Virus record (IMG/VR): IMGVR_UViG_3300016476_000533
Coordinates: 1-61,257 of that record
Length of the DNA stretch: 61,257 nucleotides
Strand: one strand, 5' to 3'
Origin: a virus
A model generated the notes under the pieces. The model ran no database searches and had not been told where the DNA came from. It saw only the letters and a program-made list of their open reading frames with translations. The translations under genes were made by a program, and so were the position numbers. Positions 4,932 through 61,257 of this stretch are shown here, one piece after another; position 1 is the first letter of the stretch, and each line of letters starts with the position of its first letter.

Positions 4932-5540
4932 CTAGGTTTTGTGCCGGAGCAAGTACTGCGCGGCGTTGAGGAGAAGTTCGGGGCTGTCCTGAAACAGGCC
5001 GAGACCAATGTTGCACGAGGAGCAGAGCAACCCTCGCACAGCGCCCGAGGTGTGACAATGATCGACCGCCAGAGCTTTGGTTTTGCCCGAGAGCCCGTTT
5101 ACCGACCGCTCCGGCTGCTCGCAGATAAGGCACAGCCCACCTTGCTGCTTGTGAAGCCGGAAAAACTCCGTCTCGTCTGTTCCGTACGACTTCATGGTTT
5201 TCCGGCGCAGATAGTGTGCGTGGCACAACCCCTTGGCGTACAAAATGTCCTCGCACCCCTCGACCTTGCACGGCTTTGGGGGCCGCTTGCGATCCGGGTA
5301 CGTCGTGAACCCCCGGCGAAGTTTCCTCTGGTAGTGCGTGGCGCACAGCCCGTTGGCCTTCACCGGATTGGAGCAACCATCCTCCACACACTCCGGCGGC
5401 TTGTCCCGCACGCGAGACTTGATGGTCTCCGTGATCGGGGCGCCCCGCTTGAACTGCATGTAGTGCGTTTGACATAAGCCTCTTGCCTTGTGAGGGCGGT
5501 CGCATCCGTTGACGGTACAAGTCTCGTGAAGTCTCAGCAT
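4932..5540 (-). CDS. Endonuclease VII-family (His-Me finger) putative free-standing homing endonuclease with three N-terminal GC-x2-P-x3-GLC-x2-HY zinc-motif repeats
   Basis: C-terminal AVDHCHTSGAVRGLLCSSCNIGLGLF matches the recombination endonuclease VII motif. Visibly lower GC than the flanks. Inserted directly downstream of the capsid gene. Confidence 0.8.
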   Translation of the reverse strand: MLRLHETCTVNGCDRPHKARGLCQTHYMQFKRGAPITETIKSRVRDKPPECVEDGCSNPVKANGLCATHYQRKLRRGFTTYPDRKRPPKPCKVEGCEDILYAKGLCHAHYLRRKTMKSYGTDETEFFRLHKQQGGLCLICEQPERSVNGLSGKTKALAVDHCHTSGAVRGLLCSSCNIGLGLFQDSPELLLNAAQYLLRHKT

Positions 5541-29915: not shown

Positions 29916-29980
29916 CAGCAACGGGCCGGGAGGCGTGACCAGACGCCTCCCGGTTTCCTTGAACCCAGGAGACAAGATAC

Positions 29981-30952
29981 ATGACCGTGACAATCCATGT
30001 GGGCGACTGCCTGCAAACCCTCCGCTCCATGCCTAGTGAGAGCGTCAACACCTGCGTGACCTCGCCGCCTTACTTTGGCCTGCGCGATTACGGGCATGAT
30101 GGGCAGATCGGGCTTGAGCAAACCCCCGACGAGTTCGTCGCCAAGCTGGTCGAGGTGTTCCGCGAGGTGCGCCGGGTTCTGCGGGGTGACGGCACCCTGT
30201 GGCTGAACCTGGGCGATAGTTACGGCTCTGCTGGAGGCAACACTCACGCCGGGTTCAACGCCCGGTATCACGGCACCCAATCGGTCGAAGACAAACAGGG
30301 CCGCGCGCTGGACGGCGTTACGGATAGGACCGTCTCGACGGGCCTGCCGGCGAAGAACCTCATCGGCATACCGTGGCGCGTAGCCTTTGCTTTACAGGCT
30401 GACGGCTGGACGCTTCGGCAGGACATCATCTGGCACAAGCCCAACCCGATGCCGGAGTCCGTGAAGGACCGATGCACCAAGGCGCACGAGTATATCTTCC
30501 TGCTGTCCAAGGGGCCGCGCTACTACTTCGACAGCGAGGCGATTTCCGAGCCTCTGGCGCCATCAAGCATCCCGCGCCCCCAACAGAACATTGACGGGCA
30601 AGTCGGCACGACGCGCGCTCATGCGGGTGGCAAGACCAACGGGAACCTCAAGGCTCAGGGCAACCTAGAGACGGGTAAGCGCAACCGCCGCAGCGTCTGG
30701 ACCGTCTCGACCAAGCCCTTCAAGGGCGCCCACTTCGCCACCTTCCCGCCGGACCTGATTGAGCCCTGCGTCCTTGCCGGAAGCCCTCCCGGCGGCGTGG
30801 TGCTGGACCCTTTCGGCGGGTCAGGCACCACTGGGCTGGTGGCCGACCGGCACGGGCGCGATGCAATCCTGTGCGAACTGAACCCGGCCTATGCGGCTAT
30901 GGCGCGCGAACGGATTGGTCCGTCTGCGCTTGACTTGGAGGATCTGATATGA
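29981..30952 (+). CDS. Beta-class DNA methyltransferase (N6-adenine or N4-cytosine)
   Basis: Motif IV TSPPY precedes motif I DPFGGSGTTG (circularly permuted beta order). Confidence 0.85.
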   Translation: MTVTIHVGDCLQTLRSMPSESVNTCVTSPPYFGLRDYGHDGQIGLEQTPDEFVAKLVEVFREVRRVLRGDGTLWLNLGDSYGSAGGNTHAGFNARYHGTQSVEDKQGRALDGVTDRTVSTGLPAKNLIGIPWRVAFALQADGWTLRQDIIWHKPNPMPESVKDRCTKAHEYIFLLSKGPRYYFDSEAISEPLAPSSIPRPQQNIDGQVGTTRAHAGGKTNGNLKAQGNLETGKRNRRSVWTVSTKPFKGAHFATFPPDLIEPCVLAGSPPGGVVLDPFGGSGTTGLVADRHGRDAILCELNPAYAAMARERIGPSALDLEDLI

Positions 30953-31212
30953 GCGATACACTTGGACACAACAGCGTGGCGCGCGAGCAACTGCGCTCGG
31001 TGATCGACCGCCTTGAGAACCTGACCGACGAGAAGTCCGAGGTGCAGGAGCAGATCAAGGAGGTGTTCGCCGAAGCCAAGGGCAACGGGTTCGACACCAA
31101 GGCGCTGCGGCGCCTGCTGGCCCTTCGCAAGAAGGACCGTGCCAAGGCGGCAGAGGAGGCGGCTATCCTGCGCCTCTACGCCTCCGCGCTTGGCTGCGAC
31201 GACCTGGTCTAG
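30949..31212 (+). CDS. gapR: GapR-like (DUF2312) DNA-binding protein
   Basis: QLRSVIDRLENLTDEKSEVQEQIKEVFAEAKGNGFDTKALRRLLALRKKD...LYASALG. Confidence 0.8.
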   Translation: MSDTLGHNSVAREQLRSVIDRLENLTDEKSEVQEQIKEVFAEAKGNGFDTKALRRLLALRKKDRAKAAEEAAILRLYASALGCDDLV

Positions 31213-31288: not shown

Positions 31289-32524
31289 ATGACCACCCTG
31301 CACCTTGACTTAGAGACGTTCGCCGAGCGCGACCTGAAGACCTACGGCACGTGGGCCTACGCCGAGGTCGCCGAGGTCATGCTGCTGGCCTACGCATGGG
31401 ACGACGGCCCCGTGGAGGTGGTCGAGTTCCCGTCCGCAGGGTTCATGCAATCGCTGATCGACAAGGCTGACGAGATCGTCATCCAGAACAGCCACTTCGA
31501 CCGGACGGTGTTGGGCTTCATGCAGGTCCGCATCCCGACCGACAAGATATTCGACACCATGGTGGTGGCTCTGGCGCACAGCCTGCCGGGCTCGCTGGAC
31601 AAGCTGTGCCAGGTCCTCGCCGTGCCTTTCGACAAGGTCAAGGACAAGGCGGGCAAGCGGCTCATCCAACTGTTCTGCAAGCCCCAGCCCAAGACGCGGA
31701 AGATCCGCAGGGCCACGAGGGAGACGCACCCGGCTGAGTGGGCTGAGTTCGTGGAGTATGCCCGCATGGACATCGTCTCCATGCGCGAGGTCTACAAGCG
31801 CCTGCCGAAGGTCAACTGGACCGAGTCGGAGAAGGCCCTGTGGCGTCTGGATCAGGCGATCAACGACCGAGGGGTGCAGATCGACCTGGACCTCGCCCAC
31901 GCCGCCCTGCGCGCCGCCAAGGAGGCTGGTGAGCGCCTCGCCGTGCAGTCCAAGGACATGACCAACGGAGCAGTGCCCAGCGCCACCCAGCGCGACGCCC
32001 TGCTGGCCTACCTGCGCGACGTGATGGGCGTGGACGTCGAGGACCTGCGCAAGGGGACGCTGGCGGGCCTGCTGAAGAGCGACATCCCCGACGACGTGCG
32101 CGAGTTGCTGGAGGTCCGCCTGCAAGCCGCGGCGACCAGTCCGGCCAAGTACCGGGTGCTGACCCGCGCCACGTCCGAGGACGGCAGACTGCGCGGCACG
32201 TTGCAGTTCGCGGGGGCAGCCCGAACGTCTCGATGGTGCTTGGCGGAAGGCGCTCCGGTTCTGGTGAAAGAGGACACCGGACGCATTTTGGAAAAACCCA
32301 TAGAAACCGTGTCTGTAGAGGACCTAGTGTGGGACGGGGAGTGCTGGGTTCGTCACGAAGGCGTGGTGTTCAGCGGAGACAAGCCGGTCATTGAGCACGA
32401 CGGCGTTGTTGCAACCAAAGAACATGTAGTGTATGTTTCAGACACAGAAAGTATGACGTTGGCTGAGGCCAAAGCGAAGGGTCTAAACCTGTGGGCGGGA
32501 AACGGTACGCAATTTATCGGCTAA
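31289..32524 (+). CDS. Family-A DNA polymerase, N-terminal fragment (3'-5' exonuclease plus N-palm, 316 aa) fused to a 95-aa split-intein N half
   Basis: Exo motifs LDLETF, NSHFD, YARMD. Extein ends ...GAARTSRW, then CLAEGAPVLV...VATKEHVVYV (Cys1, TxxH). Stop at 32522-32524. Confidence 0.85.
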   Translation: MTTLHLDLETFAERDLKTYGTWAYAEVAEVMLLAYAWDDGPVEVVEFPSAGFMQSLIDKADEIVIQNSHFDRTVLGFMQVRIPTDKIFDTMVVALAHSLPGSLDKLCQVLAVPFDKVKDKAGKRLIQLFCKPQPKTRKIRRATRETHPAEWAEFVEYARMDIVSMREVYKRLPKVNWTESEKALWRLDQAINDRGVQIDLDLAHAALRAAKEAGERLAVQSKDMTNGAVPSATQRDALLAYLRDVMGVDVEDLRKGTLAGLLKSDIPDDVRELLEVRLQAAATSPAKYRVLTRATSEDGRLRGTLQFAGAARTSRWCLAEGAPVLVKEDTGRILEKPIETVSVEDLVWDGECWVRHEGVVFSGDKPVIEHDGVVATKEHVVYVSDTESMTLAEAKAKGLNLWAGNGTQFIG

Positions 32525-33467
32525 CCTCACCCAGCGGCGGGTGTTACGTGGGTATGACAGCGCAGAGCGTATCGGTTAGATGGGGGCAGCATATCCGCCG
32601 AGCAGCCACCGGCGTGAACCACCCGCTCTGCAATGCCATCCGCAAGTACGGCGCAGACAGTTTCACAGTAGAGTGCCTAGAGGTTCTGAGTGGCCTAAAC
32701 GAGGCTGAAGCCGCAGAGATCAGGCACATAGCGGGCCTTGAAAAGTCGTACAACATATCTGAAGGCGGTTTGCACAACGGGGCTTCTGGCGCAAAAAGGT
32801 TAGCCGAACTTAGAAAAGACCCTGAGTGGGACGCGGCGTACAGAGCGCGACTGTCTGAGGGCATTAAACGCAGCGAGGCCCATGCCTCTCACGCAAAGAG
32901 GTTGGCTGACCTGGCCCTTGAGTGGCGAAAAGCTAATCCCAAAGTGGCATACAAATCCTCTCTGAGGGCGCTCAGGATTGCGGCTGCGTCCAACAAGAAC
33001 AAACGTAAGGTCCCGCACCCTTGGACCGAGGAGCAACGCGCCGCCCAAAGCCAGCGCCTGCTGGAGGCTTTCCAAAACAGGCCCCCTTCTAAGAAACTCC
33101 GGGCAAAGCGGATGGCGAAGGTGCGCGCGGAAAAACAGTGGGCTGCTCGGGACGAACGCAAACGTCAATCTATAGCCGAGAAGATTTCTGCGTCGATCAC
33201 CGAGCATCACGGCAGAAAGACGCCGGAGGAGAGGGCTGCCCACAACATGCAGTTGGCCGACGCTCGCAGCCACATAGATCACGACTTCCGAAAGAAGCGG
33301 CAGAAAGAAGCGTTAGCGTTGTACTGGACGCCAGAACGCAGGGCCGCTTTCGGGGCCGAGGTGCGTCGGAGGCGCGCTCAACAGCGGGAGACCACGTGCG
33401 AACCTACGACATAATCAACGCGGGACCTAAAAACAGGTTCATGGCATACGGCAGGATAGTGTCTAAC
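32237..33467 (+). mobile_element. Split intein (IntN 32237-32521, IntC 33396-33467) with an embedded free-standing GIY-YIG endonuclease gene
   Basis: Three different reading frames with real stop codons between them. Lower GC than the flanking polymerase sequence. Confidence 0.75.
32491..33414 (+). CDS. GIY-YIG homing endonuclease with NUMOD3-like C-terminal repeats
   Basis: AIYRLTSPSGGCYVGMT ... RWGQH ... NAIRKYG ... EAAEI ... YNISEGG. Repeated WT(E/P)E(Q/R)RAA units. Confidence 0.85.
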   Translation: MGGKRYAIYRLTSPSGGCYVGMTAQSVSVRWGQHIRRAATGVNHPLCNAIRKYGADSFTVECLEVLSGLNEAEAAEIRHIAGLEKSYNISEGGLHNGASGAKRLAELRKDPEWDAAYRARLSEGIKRSEAHASHAKRLADLALEWRKANPKVAYKSSLRALRIAAASNKNKRKVPHPWTEEQRAAQSQRLLEAFQNRPPSKKLRAKRMAKVRAEKQWAARDERKRQSIAEKISASITEHHGRKTPEERAAHNMQLADARSHIDHDFRKKRQKEALALYWTPERRAAFGAEVRRRRAQQRETTCEPTT

Positions 33468-34454
33468 TCCGGGCGCATATTCCAGCCTCAGAACCTCCCG
33501 CGACCGAGCCTCAAGCAGCCGATGATCGACGCCGGCATCGAGGCCATGAAGGCGGGCGTCGAGCACTACGCCTACGACGACGTGATGGAGTTGTGCTCCA
33601 GCGCGGTTCGCGGCGCGATTGTGGCGGCTCCGGGGCATAAACTTGTCATCGCCGACCTGTCCAACATCGAGGGGCGGATGCTGGCCTGGCTCGCGGGCGA
33701 GGACTGGAAGCTGGAGGCGTTCCGCGATTTTGACCGCGGCATCGGGCACGACATCTACAAGATCATGGCGGGCAGCGTGCTGGGGAAAGACCCGAAAGAC
33801 GTAACGAAGGACGAGCGGCAGATCAGCGGAAAAATTCCCGAACTCGCGTGCGGATTCCAGGGATCGGTCGGAGCCTTCGCTGCGATGGGCGCGGCGTACG
33901 GCGTTAGCCTGCCAGAGGACAAGGCCCTCGCCATCGTCAAGGCTTGGCGGTCAAAGAACCCGAACATAGCGAAGTTGTGGTATGACTGCGAGCGCGCCGC
34001 GCGCAACGCCATCCGAAATCCGGGCGAGGTCTATCGAGCCGGGCGTCTGGCGTTCCGGCGAATGGGCGGGTGGCTGCGTATGCGCCTGCCGTCGGGCCGC
34101 TATCTCTGCTACTTCCAGCCCGAAGTCGATGACGACGGGCGGCTGTCCTACATGGGCCAGAACCAATACACCCGTAAGTGGGAGAGGCTGAACACTTACG
34201 GCGGGAAGTTCACGGAGCAATCAACGCAGGCCGCTTCCCGCGACATCCTGGCCGCTGGCCTCAAGGCGGCGGAGGCCGAGGGCTACAACCCTGTCCTGCA
34301 CGTTCACGACGAGATCATCTGCGAGACGCCGGACGATCCGTCGTTCAGCGCAGACGGGCTGGCGGCGCTGATGAGCCGCGGCACGCAGTGGTCGGTTGGC
34401 CTCCCGCTTGCAGCGGCGGGCTTCGAGACGTATCGCTATCGGAAGGATGATTGA
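33396..34454 (+). CDS. Family-A DNA polymerase, C-terminal fragment (24-aa split-intein C half plus 328-aa extein)
   Basis: GTG after a GGGAGA RBS. VRTYDIINAGPKNRFMAYGRIVSN|SGRIFQPQNLPR. Motifs A (VIADLSNIEGR), B (RQISGKIPELACGFQGS), C (HVHDEI). Confidence 0.8.
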   Translation: MRTYDIINAGPKNRFMAYGRIVSNSGRIFQPQNLPRPSLKQPMIDAGIEAMKAGVEHYAYDDVMELCSSAVRGAIVAAPGHKLVIADLSNIEGRMLAWLAGEDWKLEAFRDFDRGIGHDIYKIMAGSVLGKDPKDVTKDERQISGKIPELACGFQGSVGAFAAMGAAYGVSLPEDKALAIVKAWRSKNPNIAKLWYDCERAARNAIRNPGEVYRAGRLAFRRMGGWLRMRLPSGRYLCYFQPEVDDDGRLSYMGQNQYTRKWERLNTYGGKFTEQSTQAASRDILAAGLKAAEAEGYNPVLHVHDEIICETPDDPSFSADGLAALMSRGTQWSVGLPLAAAGFETYRYRKDD

Positions 34455-34783
34455 TGACTGTTATTATGATGCCGCGAACCGCTGGGCTTGGGATCGGGGG
34501 TTTTACATCCTACGGGGTCAAGAAGTTGAAAAACGGGAAGTATCGCGTGGGAAATGGCACCATTTCGCTCATGAAAGAGATGGACCTGTGGGACGACCTC
34601 GGAACGCGGCTGTGGGCGCTTGAGGCTTTGGCTGCGCGACATACGAAAGGAAGGACTAGCCGTGTGGATCCCCTGCACCTCGCCGCCCAAGACCGACAAG
34701 CCGATCCGCGTCCGGTTCAGGAGCGGGACGGAGACGCTGGTCTATCGCCCGGTGAGCGACTGGTGGTGGGGCAAGGCGACTGA
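34454..34783 (+). CDS. Uncertain ORF in a lower-GC islet; its 3' third overlaps the better-supported 34662..34856 gene
   Basis: Moderate GC3 only up to about 34660; the tail reads like out-of-frame sequence. Confidence 0.25.
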   Translation: MTVIMMPRTAGLGIGGFTSYGVKKLKNGKYRVGNGTISLMKEMDLWDDLGTRLWALEALAARHTKGRTSRVDPLHLAAQDRQADPRPVQERDGDAGLSPGERLVVGQGD

Positions 34784-34856
34784 GCGAGAGTTCGGCGAGG
34801 GGTGGCGGTCCAAGCTGCCTCTTGAGATCGTGGCTTATGAGGAGATGGGCGAATGA
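34662..34856 (+). CDS. Hypothetical protein (64 aa, GTG start)
   Basis: AAGGAAGGACTAGCC-GTG context; very high GC3. Confidence 0.55.
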   Translation: MWIPCTSPPKTDKPIRVRFRSGTETLVYRPVSDWWWGKATEREFGEGWRSKLPLEIVAYEEMGE

Positions 34857-35245
34857 GCGGGGTCGGAGGTCGCGGGCGGCTTACTAAAAAAGACGTTGTG
34901 ACCAGTTTGGCGATCAACTCGTGGATTCACGGCGACAAGGTCGTGTGGAAACGGGTGCGTCTGCGGTGGGTTGATATGCGAGGGTTCAACCTCAAAAGAG
35001 CGGACCTGCGCGGCGCCGATTTGCGTAATGCTGATCTGCAAGGGGCGAAATTGAAAAAAGCCGCGCTTTCGTATGCGAAATTAGTGGGCGCGGACCTGAA
35101 AGGTGCGGACCTGACGCACGCGAGCCTTGTTGACGCCAGCCTTAGGAACGCGGACTTGAAAGGTGCAAATGTGTGGGGTGCGCGCCTGTCAGGCGCCGTA
35201 CTTACCGGCGCAAGACTTGATATCGTCATGGCCGCACCCGAATGA
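34853..35245 (+). CDS. Pentapeptide-repeat protein (130 aa)
   Basis: RADLRGADLRNADLQGAKLKKAALSYAKLVGADLKGADLTHASLVDASLRNADLKGANVWGARLSGAVLTGARL. Confidence 0.85.
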   Translation: MSGVGGRGRLTKKDVVTSLAINSWIHGDKVVWKRVRLRWVDMRGFNLKRADLRGADLRNADLQGAKLKKAALSYAKLVGADLKGADLTHASLVDASLRNADLKGANVWGARLSGAVLTGARLDIVMAAPE

Positions 35246-35538: not shown

Positions 35539-35558
35539 ACGTGTGGCTTATGGGGCTC

Positions 35559-36068
35559 ATGTTTACCTGGACCCCCGACAACACCGAAACACTCGTGCGC
35601 ATGAGGGCTGAAGGCCACAGCGCCGCTGAGATCGCCCGCACCGTGGGCACGACGCGACATGCCGTGCTGGGCAAGGCGTGGCGCATGGGCCTCGCCAACC
35701 CGGTGCGGGCCAAGGAGAACATGTCGCTGGTGTGCAAGGCCGCCGCCAAGGCCCTCAAGCCGAGGATCCCCAAGGCCCCCAAGCCCGAGAAGCCGATCAT
35801 CGTGAGGCGCGAGCCGCCTCACCCGCCGACGTACAAGCCCAAGGAGGTGAGTGCCGTGGATGAGTCGCTTATGCGCCCGTGGATCGAGCGCCAGTTCGGC
35901 CAATGCGCCTTCCCCATCGTGCGGGGAGAAGTCACCTACTCGTGCTGCGCCTGCACCCAAGGGCACAAGTCCTACTGCCCGGAGCATCGGCGCATCATGT
36001 ATCAACCGGGTGGGCTTGCAAAGCCCAAGGCCCTTCACCTCAAGACGGACGGGAGACACCTGCCATGA
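35559..36068 (+). CDS. gcrA: GcrA-like cell-cycle regulator homologue
   Basis: MFTWTPDNTETLVRMRAEGHSAAEIARTVGTTRHAVLGKAWRMGL ... CAFPI ... YCPEHRRIMYQP. The ORF track starts at GTG 35541. Confidence 0.8.
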   Translation: MFTWTPDNTETLVRMRAEGHSAAEIARTVGTTRHAVLGKAWRMGLANPVRAKENMSLVCKAAAKALKPRIPKAPKPEKPIIVRREPPHPPTYKPKEVSAVDESLMRPWIERQFGQCAFPIVRGEVTYSCCACTQGHKSYCPEHRRIMYQPGGLAKPKALHLKTDGRHLP

Positions 36069-36331: not shown

Positions 36332-37965
36332 TGCGCTACCTGTCCCTGTTCAGCGGCATCGAGGCGGCCAGCGTGGCGTGGAAGTCGCTGGGCTGGGAGT
36401 GCGCAGCGGTGGCCGAGATCGAGCCGTTCCCCTGCGCGGTGCTGGCGCATCACTACCCCGACGTGCCCAACCTCGGCGACGTGAGCCGGATCGGGCCGGA
36501 GGAAATCGCGGCGCTGGGCCGCATAGACCTTGTGGTGTTTGGCTCGCCCTGCCAGGACCTGAGCGTGGCGGGCAAGAGGAAAGGACTGGCTGGTGAGCGA
36601 AGCGGATTGTTCCACGTCGCCATGGACATCGTGCGATGGGCGCGAGAGTTCAGCGGGTGCCGATGGGCCTTGTGGGAGAACGTGCCCGGAGCCTTCTCAA
36701 GCAACAAGGGAAGAGACTTTGCGGCAGTGGTTGAGCAGATGGCAGGTCTGGACGACTGCCCAGTCCCACCCAAGGGCTGGGGGACGGAAGGCGCAGCCGT
36801 CGGCGACGAAGCAATGGTCGAGTGGGCCGTACTCGACGCGCAATGGTTCGGAGTGGCGCAGAGGCGCCGTCGCGTGTTCGCTCTCGCAGACTTTGGAGAC
36901 TGGGCCAATCGGCCCCCGGTTCTTCTTGAGCCCCAAAGCCTGCGAGGGGATACTGCGCCGAGCCGAACGCCGGGGCAAGGAATTGCCGCCGATGCTGCTC
37001 CAAGCCTTACGGCAAGTGGCCGAGGGGTAGAGCGCACGGGCGAAAGCCGAGGGCAGGATCCTGTGGTGGCGTGGCCTGCTGAGATTGCCAGCACGCTGAC
37101 CTTTGATTTTCAGGCGTCCGGCGTGTACGGTGAATCGCCTGTGGCCGCGACGTTGTCCGCTCGGGACTACAAGAGCGCGAAAGACCTAGCGGTAGATGTC
37201 CCTCACCCCATCACCCTAGCCGAGCGTGGCCGGGACGGCGGGGTGTCACTGGAGTGGCGGCAGGACGGCACGTCCAACACGATACTGACGCCGAGCGGCG
37301 GGCGAGGCGGGACGGGCGTGGGGGCGGTGGCCGTCTGCGCCACCGGCGAGGTGTTCCACGCCCTCACATCCGAGGGCTTCGACGCGAGCGAGGACGGCAC
37401 GGGGCGTGGTGGTGGTGCGATTGCCATTCAGGAACGTGCGGTGAGCGAAAACCCCGATGCCGGACCTGGCGGGAAGGGTTGGAGAGACGACGGCGCCGCC
37501 TACACGCTTGAGGCCCGGACAGTGCCGCAAGCTGTTGCCTGGTCAATCATGCCGCAGAACAGCGGGCGGGACTACAAGGCCCGCGCCGTGGATGTCGCCC
37601 AGCCGCTCATGGCCGGTCGCACGGGGGCTGGAGGCAATCAGGGCGGCGACATTATCCAGACTGTTGCCTTCCATGCCAACGCTCAAGCCGACCAACTGCC
37701 CTCCGCGAGCCGTGACACGAGCGTAACCGACAGCCTGACCTGCTCTCAGTCCGCCGCAGTCGCCACCACCATGCAGGTCCGTCGCCTGACGCCGGTCGAG
37801 TGTGCCCGATTGCAGGGCTTCCCTGACGATTATCTGGACATCCTCTACCGCAACAAGCCCGCCGCTGACGGTCCCCGCTACAAGGCCCTCGGGAACAGTT
37901 TTGCGGTTCCCGTGGTCCGCTGGATCGGGCAGCGGATCGACCTCGCCGTCTCTGACCTCGTATGA
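36331..37965 (+). CDS. dcm: DNA (cytosine-5) methyltransferase with an unusually long variable region
   Basis: LFSGIEA (I), GSPCQDLS (IV), ENVPG (VI), RRLTPVECARLQGFPDDY and LGNSFAVPV (IX/X). Confidence 0.9.
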   Translation: MRYLSLFSGIEAASVAWKSLGWECAAVAEIEPFPCAVLAHHYPDVPNLGDVSRIGPEEIAALGRIDLVVFGSPCQDLSVAGKRKGLAGERSGLFHVAMDIVRWAREFSGCRWALWENVPGAFSSNKGRDFAAVVEQMAGLDDCPVPPKGWGTEGAAVGDEAMVEWAVLDAQWFGVAQRRRRVFALADFGDWANRPPVLLEPQSLRGDTAPSRTPGQGIAADAAPSLTASGRGVERTGESRGQDPVVAWPAEIASTLTFDFQASGVYGESPVAATLSARDYKSAKDLAVDVPHPITLAERGRDGGVSLEWRQDGTSNTILTPSGGRGGTGVGAVAVCATGEVFHALTSEGFDASEDGTGRGGGAIAIQERAVSENPDAGPGGKGWRDDGAAYTLEARTVPQAVAWSIMPQNSGRDYKARAVDVAQPLMAGRTGAGGNQGGDIIQTVAFHANAQADQLPSASRDTSVTDSLTCSQSAAVATTMQVRRLTPVECARLQGFPDDYLDILYRNKPAADGPRYKALGNSFAVPVVRWIGQRIDLAVSDLV

Positions 37966-39326
37966 CCCTCACCTTCACGCCCCACGACTACCAGCGCGAG
38001 GCCCTCGACCACCTCTACGACCTGCCCCGCAGCGTCCTGTGGATGCCGATGGGCGGGGGCAAGACGGTGACGGTGCTGACCGCCCTGATGACGCTGGACC
38101 TCGTGGACGACGTGTTCCCGGTGCTGGTCCTCGCGCCAAAGCGGGTGGCGATCACCACATGGCCGCAGGAAGTGGCGAAATGGGCTCATACAGCGGCCTT
38201 GCGCGTGTCGCCGGTAGTCGGGACCGCAAAGCAGCGGGAAGCCGCCCTGCGGGCTCCTGCTGACGTCTACACGATGAGTTACGACAACCTCCCTTGGCTC
38301 GTCGCTCACTGCGGCGAGGGTTGGCCGTTCAAGACCGTGGTGGCCGACGAGCTTACCCGCCTGAAGTCCTATCGCACCCGGCAGGGCGGATCGCGGGCCA
38401 AGGCGCTCGCCAAGGTGGCGCACAGCAAGGTGCAGCGGTTCATCGGCCTGACGGGCACGCCGGCGCCCAACGGCCTGAAGGACTTGTGGGGGCAGGTCTG
38501 GTTCGTGGACAAGGGCGCGCGCCTCGGCAAGACGTTCTCGGCCTTCACCATGCGCTGGTTCACCAAGGGCTGGGACGGGTTCAGCCTCCAGCCTCTGGCC
38601 CATGCGCAGAAGGACATCGAGGAGCGGCTGGCGGACATCTGCCTGACGGTGAAGGGCCTCGACGTGGACGAGCCGATCCGCAACACGATTGAGGTCGAGT
38701 TGCCGAGGGAGGCGAGGCGCATCTACCGCGACCTGGAGCGCGACATGTGGGCGCAGATCGGCAAGGTCGGGATCGAGGCGGCGAACGCCGCGGTGCGCAC
38801 CAGCAAGTGCCTACAGTTGTCGAACGGCGCGGTCTACGTGGACGAGGACGGCAACTGGGAAGAAGTCCACCGCGAGAAGATCGACGCGCTCAAGAGCGTG
38901 GTGGAGGAGGCCAACGGGATGCCGGTGCTGGTCGCCTATAACTTCGTGAGCGACCTGAAGCGCATACTGGACGCCGTGCCGGGCTCACGGCATCTGGACG
39001 ACAACCCCAAGACCATTGACGACTGGAACGCCGGGAAGATCCCCGTGCTGGTCGCCCACCCCGCGTCCGCAGGCCATGGCCTAAACCTCCAGCACGGCGG
39101 CAACATCCTCGCGTTCTTCGGCCTGAACTGGAACCTTGAGGAACACGACCAGATCATCGAGCGGATCGGCCCGCAGCGCCAGAAGCAGGCGGGCTACGAC
39201 CGACCCGTGTTCATCCACTACATCGTCGCCAAGGACACGATGGACCCCGTAGTGCTGGACCGCCTCGTCAACAAGCGCAGCGTTCAGGACGTGCTGCTTG
39301 AGGCTATGAAGCGTCGGGCAGATTAG
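37962..39326 (+). CDS. SNF2-family helicase
   Basis: DYQREA...MGGGKT, VVADELTRLKS, LTGTPAPNGLKDLW, C-terminal helicase domain HPASAGHGLNLQ. Confidence 0.85.
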   Translation: MTLTFTPHDYQREALDHLYDLPRSVLWMPMGGGKTVTVLTALMTLDLVDDVFPVLVLAPKRVAITTWPQEVAKWAHTAALRVSPVVGTAKQREAALRAPADVYTMSYDNLPWLVAHCGEGWPFKTVVADELTRLKSYRTRQGGSRAKALAKVAHSKVQRFIGLTGTPAPNGLKDLWGQVWFVDKGARLGKTFSAFTMRWFTKGWDGFSLQPLAHAQKDIEERLADICLTVKGLDVDEPIRNTIEVELPREARRIYRDLERDMWAQIGKVGIEAANAAVRTSKCLQLSNGAVYVDEDGNWEEVHREKIDALKSVVEEANGMPVLVAYNFVSDLKRILDAVPGSRHLDDNPKTIDDWNAGKIPVLVAHPASAGHGLNLQHGGNILAFFGLNWNLEEHDQIIERIGPQRQKQAGYDRPVFIHYIVAKDTMDPVVLDRLVNKRSVQDVLLEAMKRRAD

Positions 39327-61062: not shown

Positions 61063-61257
61063 TTAGCAGGCCCACGCGCGCCGGGCTTTACGCAGGCGGC
61101 TGTTAGGGTCCTTAGCGGCTTCGGGAAACATCTTCGCCTGTCCAGCGGAGCGGGCGCAGAAGGACTTGCGGCGGGCAGCGTCTTTTTCTGTCTTGGGGTG
61201 CGGAGCGGGTGGCTTCAGCCCCGGCTTGCCGGGATTGGCCTTGTTGTAGGAGGCGCG
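61063..61257 (-). CDS. 3' part of the junction-spanning 104-aa ORF (see 1..142)
   Basis: Hand translation gives ...NPGKPGLKPPAPHPKTEKDAARRKSFCARSAGQAKMFPEAAKDPNSRLRKARRAWAC, with stop TAA at 61063-61065. Confidence 0.55.
   Translation of the reverse strand, partial: RASYNKANPGKPGLKPPAPHPKTEKDAARRKSFCARSAGQAKMFPEAAKDPNSRLRKARRAWAC
61236..61257. repeat. Second copy of the 22-nt window-end duplication
   Basis: Identical to nt 1-22. Confidence 0.9.

Follow-up and report, generated by a model that had tools for sequence, protein, structure and literature searches.

A predicted split intein with a free-standing GIY-YIG endonuclease gene between its halves in a phage family-A DNA polymerase gene

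The virus record IMGVR_UViG_3300016476_000533, a stretch of 61,257 nucleotides (nt) that we refer to as the window, encodes its family-A DNA polymerase in two open reading frames (ORFs) separated by a third, which encodes a homing endonuclease of the GIY-YIG type. We conclude, with a probability of about 0.85, that the polymerase gene harbors a mobile element made up of a class-1-type intein of the HINT fold that is broken by the free-standing GIY-YIG gene, that the two intein halves trans-splice to give a polymerase of 644 amino acids (aa), and that the endonuclease homes. The endonuclease gene would occupy the place in which inteins usually hold an endonuclease domain, and transcription would pass through all three overlapping genes, giving rise to three products: polymerase residues 1-316 extended by an acidic N-terminal intein half of 95 aa (IntN), the endonuclease, and a basic C-terminal intein half of 24 aa (IntC) followed by polymerase residues 317-644. 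The halves are predicted to associate and to trans-splice by way of Cys1, the block-B Thr and His, the block-F Asp, the terminal Asn and a Ser at the first position of the C-extein (+1), leaving a seamless 644-aa polymerase. The endonuclease would most likely cleave alleles that are free of the element, whether empty or carrying an intein without the endonuclease gene, and repair of the cleaved allele would then copy the element in (homing).

A single insertion point in the polymerase gene

The three ORFs span positions 31289-34454 of the window on the + strand, each in its own frame (Table 1). In Pfam, the first (ORF1) matches DNA_pol_A_exo1 (PF01612) and the last (ORF2) matches DNA_pol_A (PF00476, E = 9e-12), and DNA polymerase families of the PHROG collection match the ORFs at E-values of 1e-40 to 1e-64. 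Residues 1-316 of ORF1 correspond to positions 670-975 of phrog_17 (E = 1.2e-40) and residues 25-349 of ORF2 to positions 976-1231. Since this family is contiguous at 975/976, the last 95 aa of ORF1 and the first 24 aa of ORF2, whose N-terminus reads VRTYDIINAGPKNRFMAYGRIVSN and then SGRIFQPQNLPR, are extra and mark one insertion point.

Joining the exteins (316 + 328 residues) gives the 644 aa that a first-pass annotation, made from the sequence alone, had predicted for the spliced product, and three uninterrupted homologues (P0003, P0004 and P0008) are each exactly 644 aa long, the N-extein being 92% and 91% identical at the aa level to P0003 and P0004, respectively. The uninterrupted homologues run through the site without a break (...GASRTGRF-GGRLFQPQNLP...), and the insertion falls within the conserved family-A polymerase motif RTxRW↓(G/S)GRxFQPQNLP (arrows mark points of insertion or splitting here and below). 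The first-pass annotation had also considered that the segments CLAEG...FIG and VRTYD...VSN might turn out to be ordinary polymerase sequence that aligns with uninterrupted homologues; both segments are absent from these homologues. At the nucleotide level, the spliced coding sequence (CDS; 948 + 987 nt) is colinear with the gene of an intein-less relative, L082 (1935 vs 1935 nt, 88.5% nt identity), and the 1231-nt insert is absent from intein-less relatives to the exact nucleotide. The replication modules of the window and L082 are likewise colinear, at 87-92% (blastn), save for a few cassettes found only in the window, one of which is 32218-33470. As had been remarked in the first reading of this DNA, the G+C (GC) content of the insert lies below that of the polymerase: 57.1% (IntN 54%, endonuclease 58.5%, IntC 48.6%) vs 65.3% for the exteins and 65.5% for the window.

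The borders of the two polymerase ORFs hold as first annotated, both for the 95-aa tail of ORF1 with its Cys1, TxxH motif and stop codon and for the GTG start of ORF2, which lies downstream of GGGAGA in a frame of its own. The endonuclease ORF overlaps the 3' end of IntN by 34 nt and the start of IntC by 19 nt (33396-33414). A search of the insert found neither a sigma-70-like promoter nor a terminator-like site on the + strand, the single terminator-like site being on the - strand. With no internal promoter or terminator and with overlapping starts and stops, the simplest reading is that the three genes would be expressed from one transcript with coupled translation.

An assembly or sequencing artefact, in which indel errors would have introduced the frame changes and stops into a contiguous intein with an in-frame endonuclease, would suit the origin of the window as a metagenome-type contig and the existence of related inteins with in-frame inserts. 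However, at least 19 independent contigs, which stem from different samples, and dozens of protein clusters repeat the three frames, the overlaps of 34 nt and 19 nt, the position of the IntN stop codon and the start of IntC; moreover, the endonuclease starts from a codon of its own, and the stretch that encodes its GIY motif falls within the overlap. We regard such an artefact as highly improbable and retain the interpretation of three genuine genes.

Intein features of the extra segments

In an alignment of 17 sequences that share the insertion site of the window's own polymerase (site a), there is no variation at C1, at T66 and H69 (Thr and His of block B), at D106 (Asp of block F) or at S124 and N125, the last two residues of the intein. 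Every split locus (25/25) has Ser or Cys at +1, and 44 of the 45 uninterrupted homologues have Gly or Ala, the pattern expected if this residue is needed as a splicing nucleophile. IntN has a net charge of -9 and IntC of +3, a polarity that is maintained family-wide.

When the family profile A3, which includes related contiguous inteins, was compared with the Protein Data Bank (PDB), 25 of the 27 matches were inteins, led by a DnaE intein (7QIL, E = 0.0024), a RecA mini-intein (E = 0.0033) and the Nanoarchaeum equitans Pol split intein NEQ068 (E = 0.006); a phmmer search of the PDB with the fused intein halves gave chance matches only. AlphaFold (AF2), provided with artificially fused halves and an alignment of 30 rows (N-intein rows and five cis mini-inteins), returned a model with a predicted local distance difference test (pLDDT) score of 77.5 and a predicted template modelling (pTM) score of 0.65, in which low confidence is limited to the extein ends and to residues 96-104 around the split junction (...TQFIG↓MRT...), whereas a single-sequence prediction of the fused intein reached a pLDDT of 40 and was unusable. 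Inteins or bacterial intein-like (BIL) domains accounted for 23 of the top 29 Foldseek matches of the AF2 model, the best being gp41-1 (E = 6e-4); Npu DnaE (template modelling (TM) scores 0.70/0.66, root mean square deviation (rmsd) 4.5), VidaL and NrdJ-1 were also among them. Thus, profile matches and predicted fold agree with the claim, already made in the first-pass annotation, that the two extra segments are intein halves, and they support their assignment to a class-1-type intein of the HINT fold; the Pfam intein models are silent on the matter. A proposed homology between the TQF of the IntN tail and TQFQIS of a contiguous intein (L013) was dropped on account of inconsistent positions.

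Several points weigh against this interpretation. Neither the Pfam intein models nor the Pfam GIY-YIG model is significant on the window's own sequences; the intein and Hint families of Pfam gave no match at E ≤ 10, either with IntN alone or with the fused halves, which we ascribe to a family too divergent for those models. The E-values of the PDB profile matches are only about 1e-3, and the AF2 model has moderate confidence and derives from an artificial fusion and a shallow alignment. The first beta-strand of the DnaE and gp41-1 C-inteins is absent from IntC (in the profile alignment the opening strand of the DnaE C-intein, IKIATRKYLG, finds no counterpart there), and the mode of assembly may therefore differ. 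The penultimate residue is Ser and not the usual His, yet the same is true of many cis members of the family. Finally, splicing of this intein is something that we infer.

If the intein halves did not splice, they might serve as a tight non-covalent dimerisation module and hold together a two-chain polymerase, comparable to the endonuclease-fractured NrdA of phage Aeh1 and the split gp43 of some T4-like phages. Endonuclease-fractured genes can indeed function without inteins: nrdA of Aeh1 and gp43 of the T4-like Aeromonas phage 25 are split by endonuclease genes in the absence of an intein, and their products assemble non-covalently (Dassa et al., 2009; PMC2677866). As in the window, a free-standing homing-endonuclease gene divides an essential phage replication gene into two ORFs in these cases, and the missing penultimate His and the very short IntC would also be in keeping with a two-chain enzyme. 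However, the break in the window is flanked by conserved intein halves, in which every residue of the splicing chemistry is conserved without exception; among these are Cys1, the terminal Asn and, at +1, a nucleophile that is missing from empty alleles. In addition, a polymerase motif as strongly conserved as this one would hardly accommodate 119 additional residues, and the cis relatives at site a have to splice for any polymerase to be produced. A two-chain polymerase is therefore unlikely, and we favor trans-splicing of the two halves.

The sequence of IntC is xRTYDIINAGPKNRFMAYGRIVSN, with Ser as the next residue. Homologous C-fragments from metagenomes open with MRTYDI(I/V)NAGP..., and almost all of the 25 loci have their start codon, mostly ATG, precisely 3 codons upstream of YD. 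A longer IntC from an upstream start was rejected: in L011, L014-L020 and L022-L025 the frame opens merely 5-15 codons upstream, which makes a longer IntC impossible there. A public gene call (P0121) places the start of the C-fragment at Met16 of IntC (window position 33441, MAYGRIVSN...) and so loses block F; we also rejected this start, as it would remove a conserved block. Annotation pipelines will mis-start or mislabel fragments of this kind, and the polymerase pair could otherwise be read as a pseudogene.

Known natural C-inteins range from 30 to 41 aa (30 for Neq Pol, 35-36 for DnaE, 37 for gp41-1 and 37-41 for the group of gp41-1, NrdJ-1 and IMPDH-1), and engineered C-intein fragments shorter than 24 aa exist. 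If these lengths are right, the 24-aa IntC would be the shortest natural C-intein. Both its shortness and its penultimate Ser, which had been singled out as unusual in the first reading, are real, but both are constant traits of a large family and not peculiarities of this phage. As a natural, co-evolved split pair (Cys1/Ser+1) with a 24-aa C-fragment that is within reach of peptide synthesis, the intein would lend itself to semisynthesis; orthogonality to the inteins of DnaE and gp41 is possible, and protein engineers would have a use for it if it splices well.

The endonuclease gene and known systems

The protein encoded between the intein halves matches TIGR01453 (group I intron endonuclease, I-TevI type) over residues 7-109 (E = 1.9e-12), with a score of 47.7 bits that lies below the curated cut-off of 56.05, and four PHROG homing-endonuclease families match it at 1e-12 to 1e-6. 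The Pfam GIY-YIG model (PF01541) matches 8 of 13 family members from homologous loci (best 3e-11) but not the window protein. The residues Y9, Y19, G21, R30, H34, E76 and N88 are invariant in the endonuclease family and correspond to the catalytic positions of GIY-YIG enzymes, which, as far as sequence can indicate, makes it probable that the window's enzyme is active. A long basic C-terminal region is a candidate for the DNA-binding part. NUMOD3 (PF07460) has no match in the window protein and one in the 13 relatives (E = 0.027), and in searches of the PDB with the endonuclease phmmer gave chance matches only and the profile none. Hence, the first-pass assignment of the middle gene to the GIY-YIG endonucleases, in a third frame, is borne out by TIGR01453 and by the PF01541 matches of its relatives, whereas the NUMOD3-like repeats that it had described are not. 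Like I-TevI-type endonucleases, the window protein has an N-terminal catalytic domain in which GIY...YxG and the Arg, His, Glu and Asn positions are conserved; it differs from them in the location of its gene outside any intron, in its sub-cut-off score and in the lack of a detectable NUMOD3.

The best curated match of the endonuclease being named for group I introns, and a related cis polymerase intein of Sodalis phage SO-1 being annotated as an intron, one might take the insert for a group I intron that carries a GIY-YIG endonuclease and is removed from the RNA. The Rfam intron models, however, gave no match over 31900-33800 even at E ≤ 1, and both ends of the insert continue the reading frame of the adjoining extein, contain conserved intein blocks and are predicted to adopt the HINT fold, leaving the intron with almost no likelihood.

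The arrangement agrees in detail with the fractured genes described from metagenomic reads, to which the first-pass annotation had likened it. In those genes, a free-standing GIY-YIG or Vsr-like endonuclease gene lies between the halves of split inteins such as gp41-1, NrdJ-1 and IMPDH-1; the host enzymes are gp41, IMPDH, DnaE, NrdA, NrdJ, ligase and terminase; the 3' end of the endonuclease gene overlaps the downstream intein half by 6-69 bp (15 loci); and the invading endonuclease gene has been proposed to provide both the upstream stop and the downstream start (Dassa et al., 2009; PMC2677866). The window shares with them the order of host N-part and IntN, endonuclease in another frame, and IntC and host C-part, as well as the phage origin, a host enzyme of DNA metabolism, an endonuclease gene whose 3' end extends into the start of IntC (by 19 nt here) and an upstream stop that stems from the 5' end of the endonuclease gene; the predicted fold of its intein is closest to that of gp41-1. 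It differs in that the host is a family-A DNA polymerase, which is absent from the list of Dassa et al., in that it resides on a contig of 61 kb, probably a complete genome, as opposed to assembled read fragments, and in that the arrangement is kept over deep polymerase divergence. These comparisons place the locus among the fractured genes as Dassa et al. (2009) defined them, with a host gene that is new to the group; a described split intein of a family-A polymerase was not found in the literature that we searched, the coverage of which was incomplete. The fractured-gene arrangement is thereby extended to a replicative family-A polymerase of phages, where it has spread widely and persisted for long and is not just an oddity of assembled marine reads. 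Its principle will not surprise specialists, but three aspects are noteworthy: how deeply it is conserved, the full series of evolutionary states that a single site displays, and the shortness of IntC.

The split inteins of cyanobacterial DnaE (Ssp and Npu) and of Nanoarchaeum equitans Pol are also naturally split class-1 inteins in replicative polymerases, with an acidic IntN, a basic IntC and the HINT fold. Unlike in the window, distant genes encode their two halves, no endonuclease intervenes, and the host polymerases are of families C and B. Clear homologues of the window intein are found as contiguous inteins in the same polymerase family, in the Caulobacter phages RW, GB2A, RLK and KcrB, P45 of APSE-1, Sodalis phage SO-1 and Streptococcus Javan prophages. 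They share with it the pattern CxAEG...VWDG..WV.H...ATP.H ... YDI.NAGP.HRF...VxN, but act in cis within one ORF, are inserted mostly at xELA↓C and GGKxxEN↓C and usually end in HN↓C; cis relatives with canonical ...HN↓C ends are present at site a and at two other polymerase sites. The polymerase of SO-1 (L087, NC_013600; 1552-4740) is a single CDS containing a related intein and an in-frame HNH endonuclease, and the label 'type I self-splicing intron' in its record looks like a misannotation.

Conservation, mobility and genomic context

A scan of viral contigs with the IntN alignment identified 344 relatives, and 80 loci were fetched. The order N-fragment/IntN, GIY-YIG gene, IntC/C-fragment is present in at least 19 viral contigs, with the overlaps also kept, even though the polymerases of these 19 contigs are only about 30-60% identical to that of the window (many 30-40%) and their homologous GIY-YIG genes 28-53%. 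Mean identity to the window over 19 loci with an intein at site a amounts to 61% for IntN and 83% for IntC, as opposed to 39% for the N-extein and 41.5% for the C-extein (endonuclease, 39%), indicating a stronger constraint on the two intein halves than on the polymerase around them. A tail of the same type as IntN, usually 95 aa long, was detected in about 70 of the best 120 homologues, and IntN ends and IntC starts at the same point in 25 loci. A profile search of 1.84 billion representative proteins yielded 2788 clusters at E ≤ 0.001; among the best 143 of these 2788, there are at least 31 site-a N-fragments that end in IntN vs 4 contiguous site-a inteins, and 48 of the best 143 representative proteins bear two intein copies. 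A further homologue search with the intein profile added little (merely 35 short proteins). A megablast search with the locus gave no match among 50,697 phage records, and none of the records examined, those of cultured phages included, showed the split site-a form.

These figures also bear on whether the locus might be decaying, that is, whether insertion of the endonuclease gene inactivated the polymerase and the phage uses another one. Although formally possible for any interrupted gene, decay has no specific evidence in its favor: both extein ORFs are intact, with 92% identity to an uninterrupted relative, conservation is stronger on the intein halves than on the exteins, the split form is the commonest state of site a among the best representative clusters, and a second polymerase was not seen in the replication module. 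Decay is thus very improbable, and the conservation of the intein halves accords with a functional trans-splicing element.

Other states of site a were also encountered. Contiguous mini-inteins occupy it in L013 (135 aa) and L021 (139 aa), and empty alleles are present as well. In L014-L018 and L020 (approximately 5040-5390), the intein is split without an endonuclease gene, IntN ending in ...LWQGEKP followed by a stop and, a few bases on, by the ATG of IntC; these forms reflect either endonuclease loss or a different origin of the break. In L029 (5245-6035), another GIY-YIG endonuclease with clear NUMOD3-type repeats (GFKHSEETIKNLS etc.) is encoded between the site-a halves in two ORFs and is possibly decaying. 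In P0059 (586 aa), the site-a IntN runs in frame into an endonuclease of the HNH_3/AP2 type before the stop. Many related polymerases contain a second, homologous contiguous intein at xELA↓C...↓CGY or GGKxxEN↓C...↓CVQ, sometimes beside the split one.

Signs of mobility come from close pairs of filled and empty alleles (n = 2), the window vs L082 (88.5% nt identity) and L003 vs L083 (92%), in which the whole element is either present or absent. At the junction, identity drops to 72% in the first pair and to 68% in the second, compared with 90-97% beside it. Judged from these sequences, the divergence would fit either co-conversion during homing or divergence of the target site.

We put forward, with considerable reservation, a broader proposal: the site-a element may be an ancient and stable three-gene unit that constitutes the dominant state in a large clade of phage family-A polymerases and not a transient stage of decay, and its 24-aa IntC may be the shortest natural one and assemble without the first beta-strand. 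If so, the occurrence at one site of empty, cis, split (with or without endonuclease) and HNH-fusion states, which cover every stage of the Dassa model, would make the birth of a split intein testable, and the series could be used to test the model in which endonuclease invasion breaks the intein.

Table 1. Features of the polymerase locus (window coordinates unless a contig is named) and positions of second inteins in related polymerases. RBS, ribosome-binding site.
Feature	Position	Strand	Description
ORF1	31289 (ATG) to TAA 32522-32524	+	411 aa
N-extein	31289..32236	+	Family-A DNA polymerase residues 1-316, ends ...GAARTSRW; 3'-5' exonuclease domain and start of polymerase domain
Junction, upstream half	32207..32236	+	Hyper-divergent extein stretch; candidate endonuclease recognition or co-conversion zone
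N-intein (IntN)	32237..32524 incl. TAA	+	95 aa, CLAEG...TQFIG; Cys1, block-B T-K-E-H
Likely RBS of endonuclease gene	32476..32481	+	GAAGGG, 9 nt upstream of GTG; by sequence inspection
GIY-YIG homing-endonuclease gene	32491 (GTG)..33414	+	307 aa, free-standing
Likely RBS of IntC ORF	33386..33391	+	GGGAGA, 4 nt upstream of GTG; by sequence inspection
ORF2	GTG 33396 to 34454	+	352 aa; frame open already from 33138
C-intein (IntC)	33396..33467	+	24 aa, (M/V)RTYDIINAGPKNRFMAYGRIVSN; blocks F and G, terminal Asn, penultimate Ser
C-extein	33468..34454 incl. stop	+	Polymerase residues 317-644, SGRIFQPQNLPR...RYRKDD
Junction, downstream half	33468..33497	+	Hyper-divergent; SGRIF in intein-bearing alleles vs GGRLF in empty ones
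Second-intein loci	L002 6657-; L006 7099-; L013 5826-; L014 5798-; L027 6733-; L001 (Caulobacter phage RW) 4726-5646		

Positions 1-22 of the window are identical to 61236-61257 (22 nt), as would be expected of an assembly that closes into a circle or of a terminal repeat, and hence of a complete genome; this identity lends the earlier description of an intact phage genome weak support. Among the products of the replication module are a DNA-binding protein that resembles GapR and a cell-cycle regulator that resembles GcrA (window 30949-31212 and 35541-36068); together with the GC content of 65.5% and with Caulobacter phages as the nearest cultured relatives, these genes point to an alphaproteobacterial, Caulobacter-like host.

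Two neighbors of the polymerase locus are absent from L082. Window 29916-30954 is a window-only cassette with a gene (29981-30952) for an N6/N4 DNA methylase (PF01555, E = 4e-49). Just 3' of the polymerase lies a second patch of low GC (0.54-0.58; window 34455-34647 and 34857-35238), in which the gene at 34853-35245 encodes a pentapeptide-repeat protein of 130 aa (PF00805, E = 7e-29), possibly a 'moron' with a DNA-mimic or anti-defence role.

Downstream of the polymerase, the SNF2 helicase gene of close relatives looks interrupted, with a DUF559 (Vsr-like endonuclease) gene in the gap (L083 6298-7935, L085 4628-6265 and L084 6295-7935). The helicase product of L084 has a Hint_2 match, while the window's own SNF2 gene (37962-39326) is uninterrupted. 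The interrupted helicase of these relatives may represent a second fractured gene, of the Vsr-like type.

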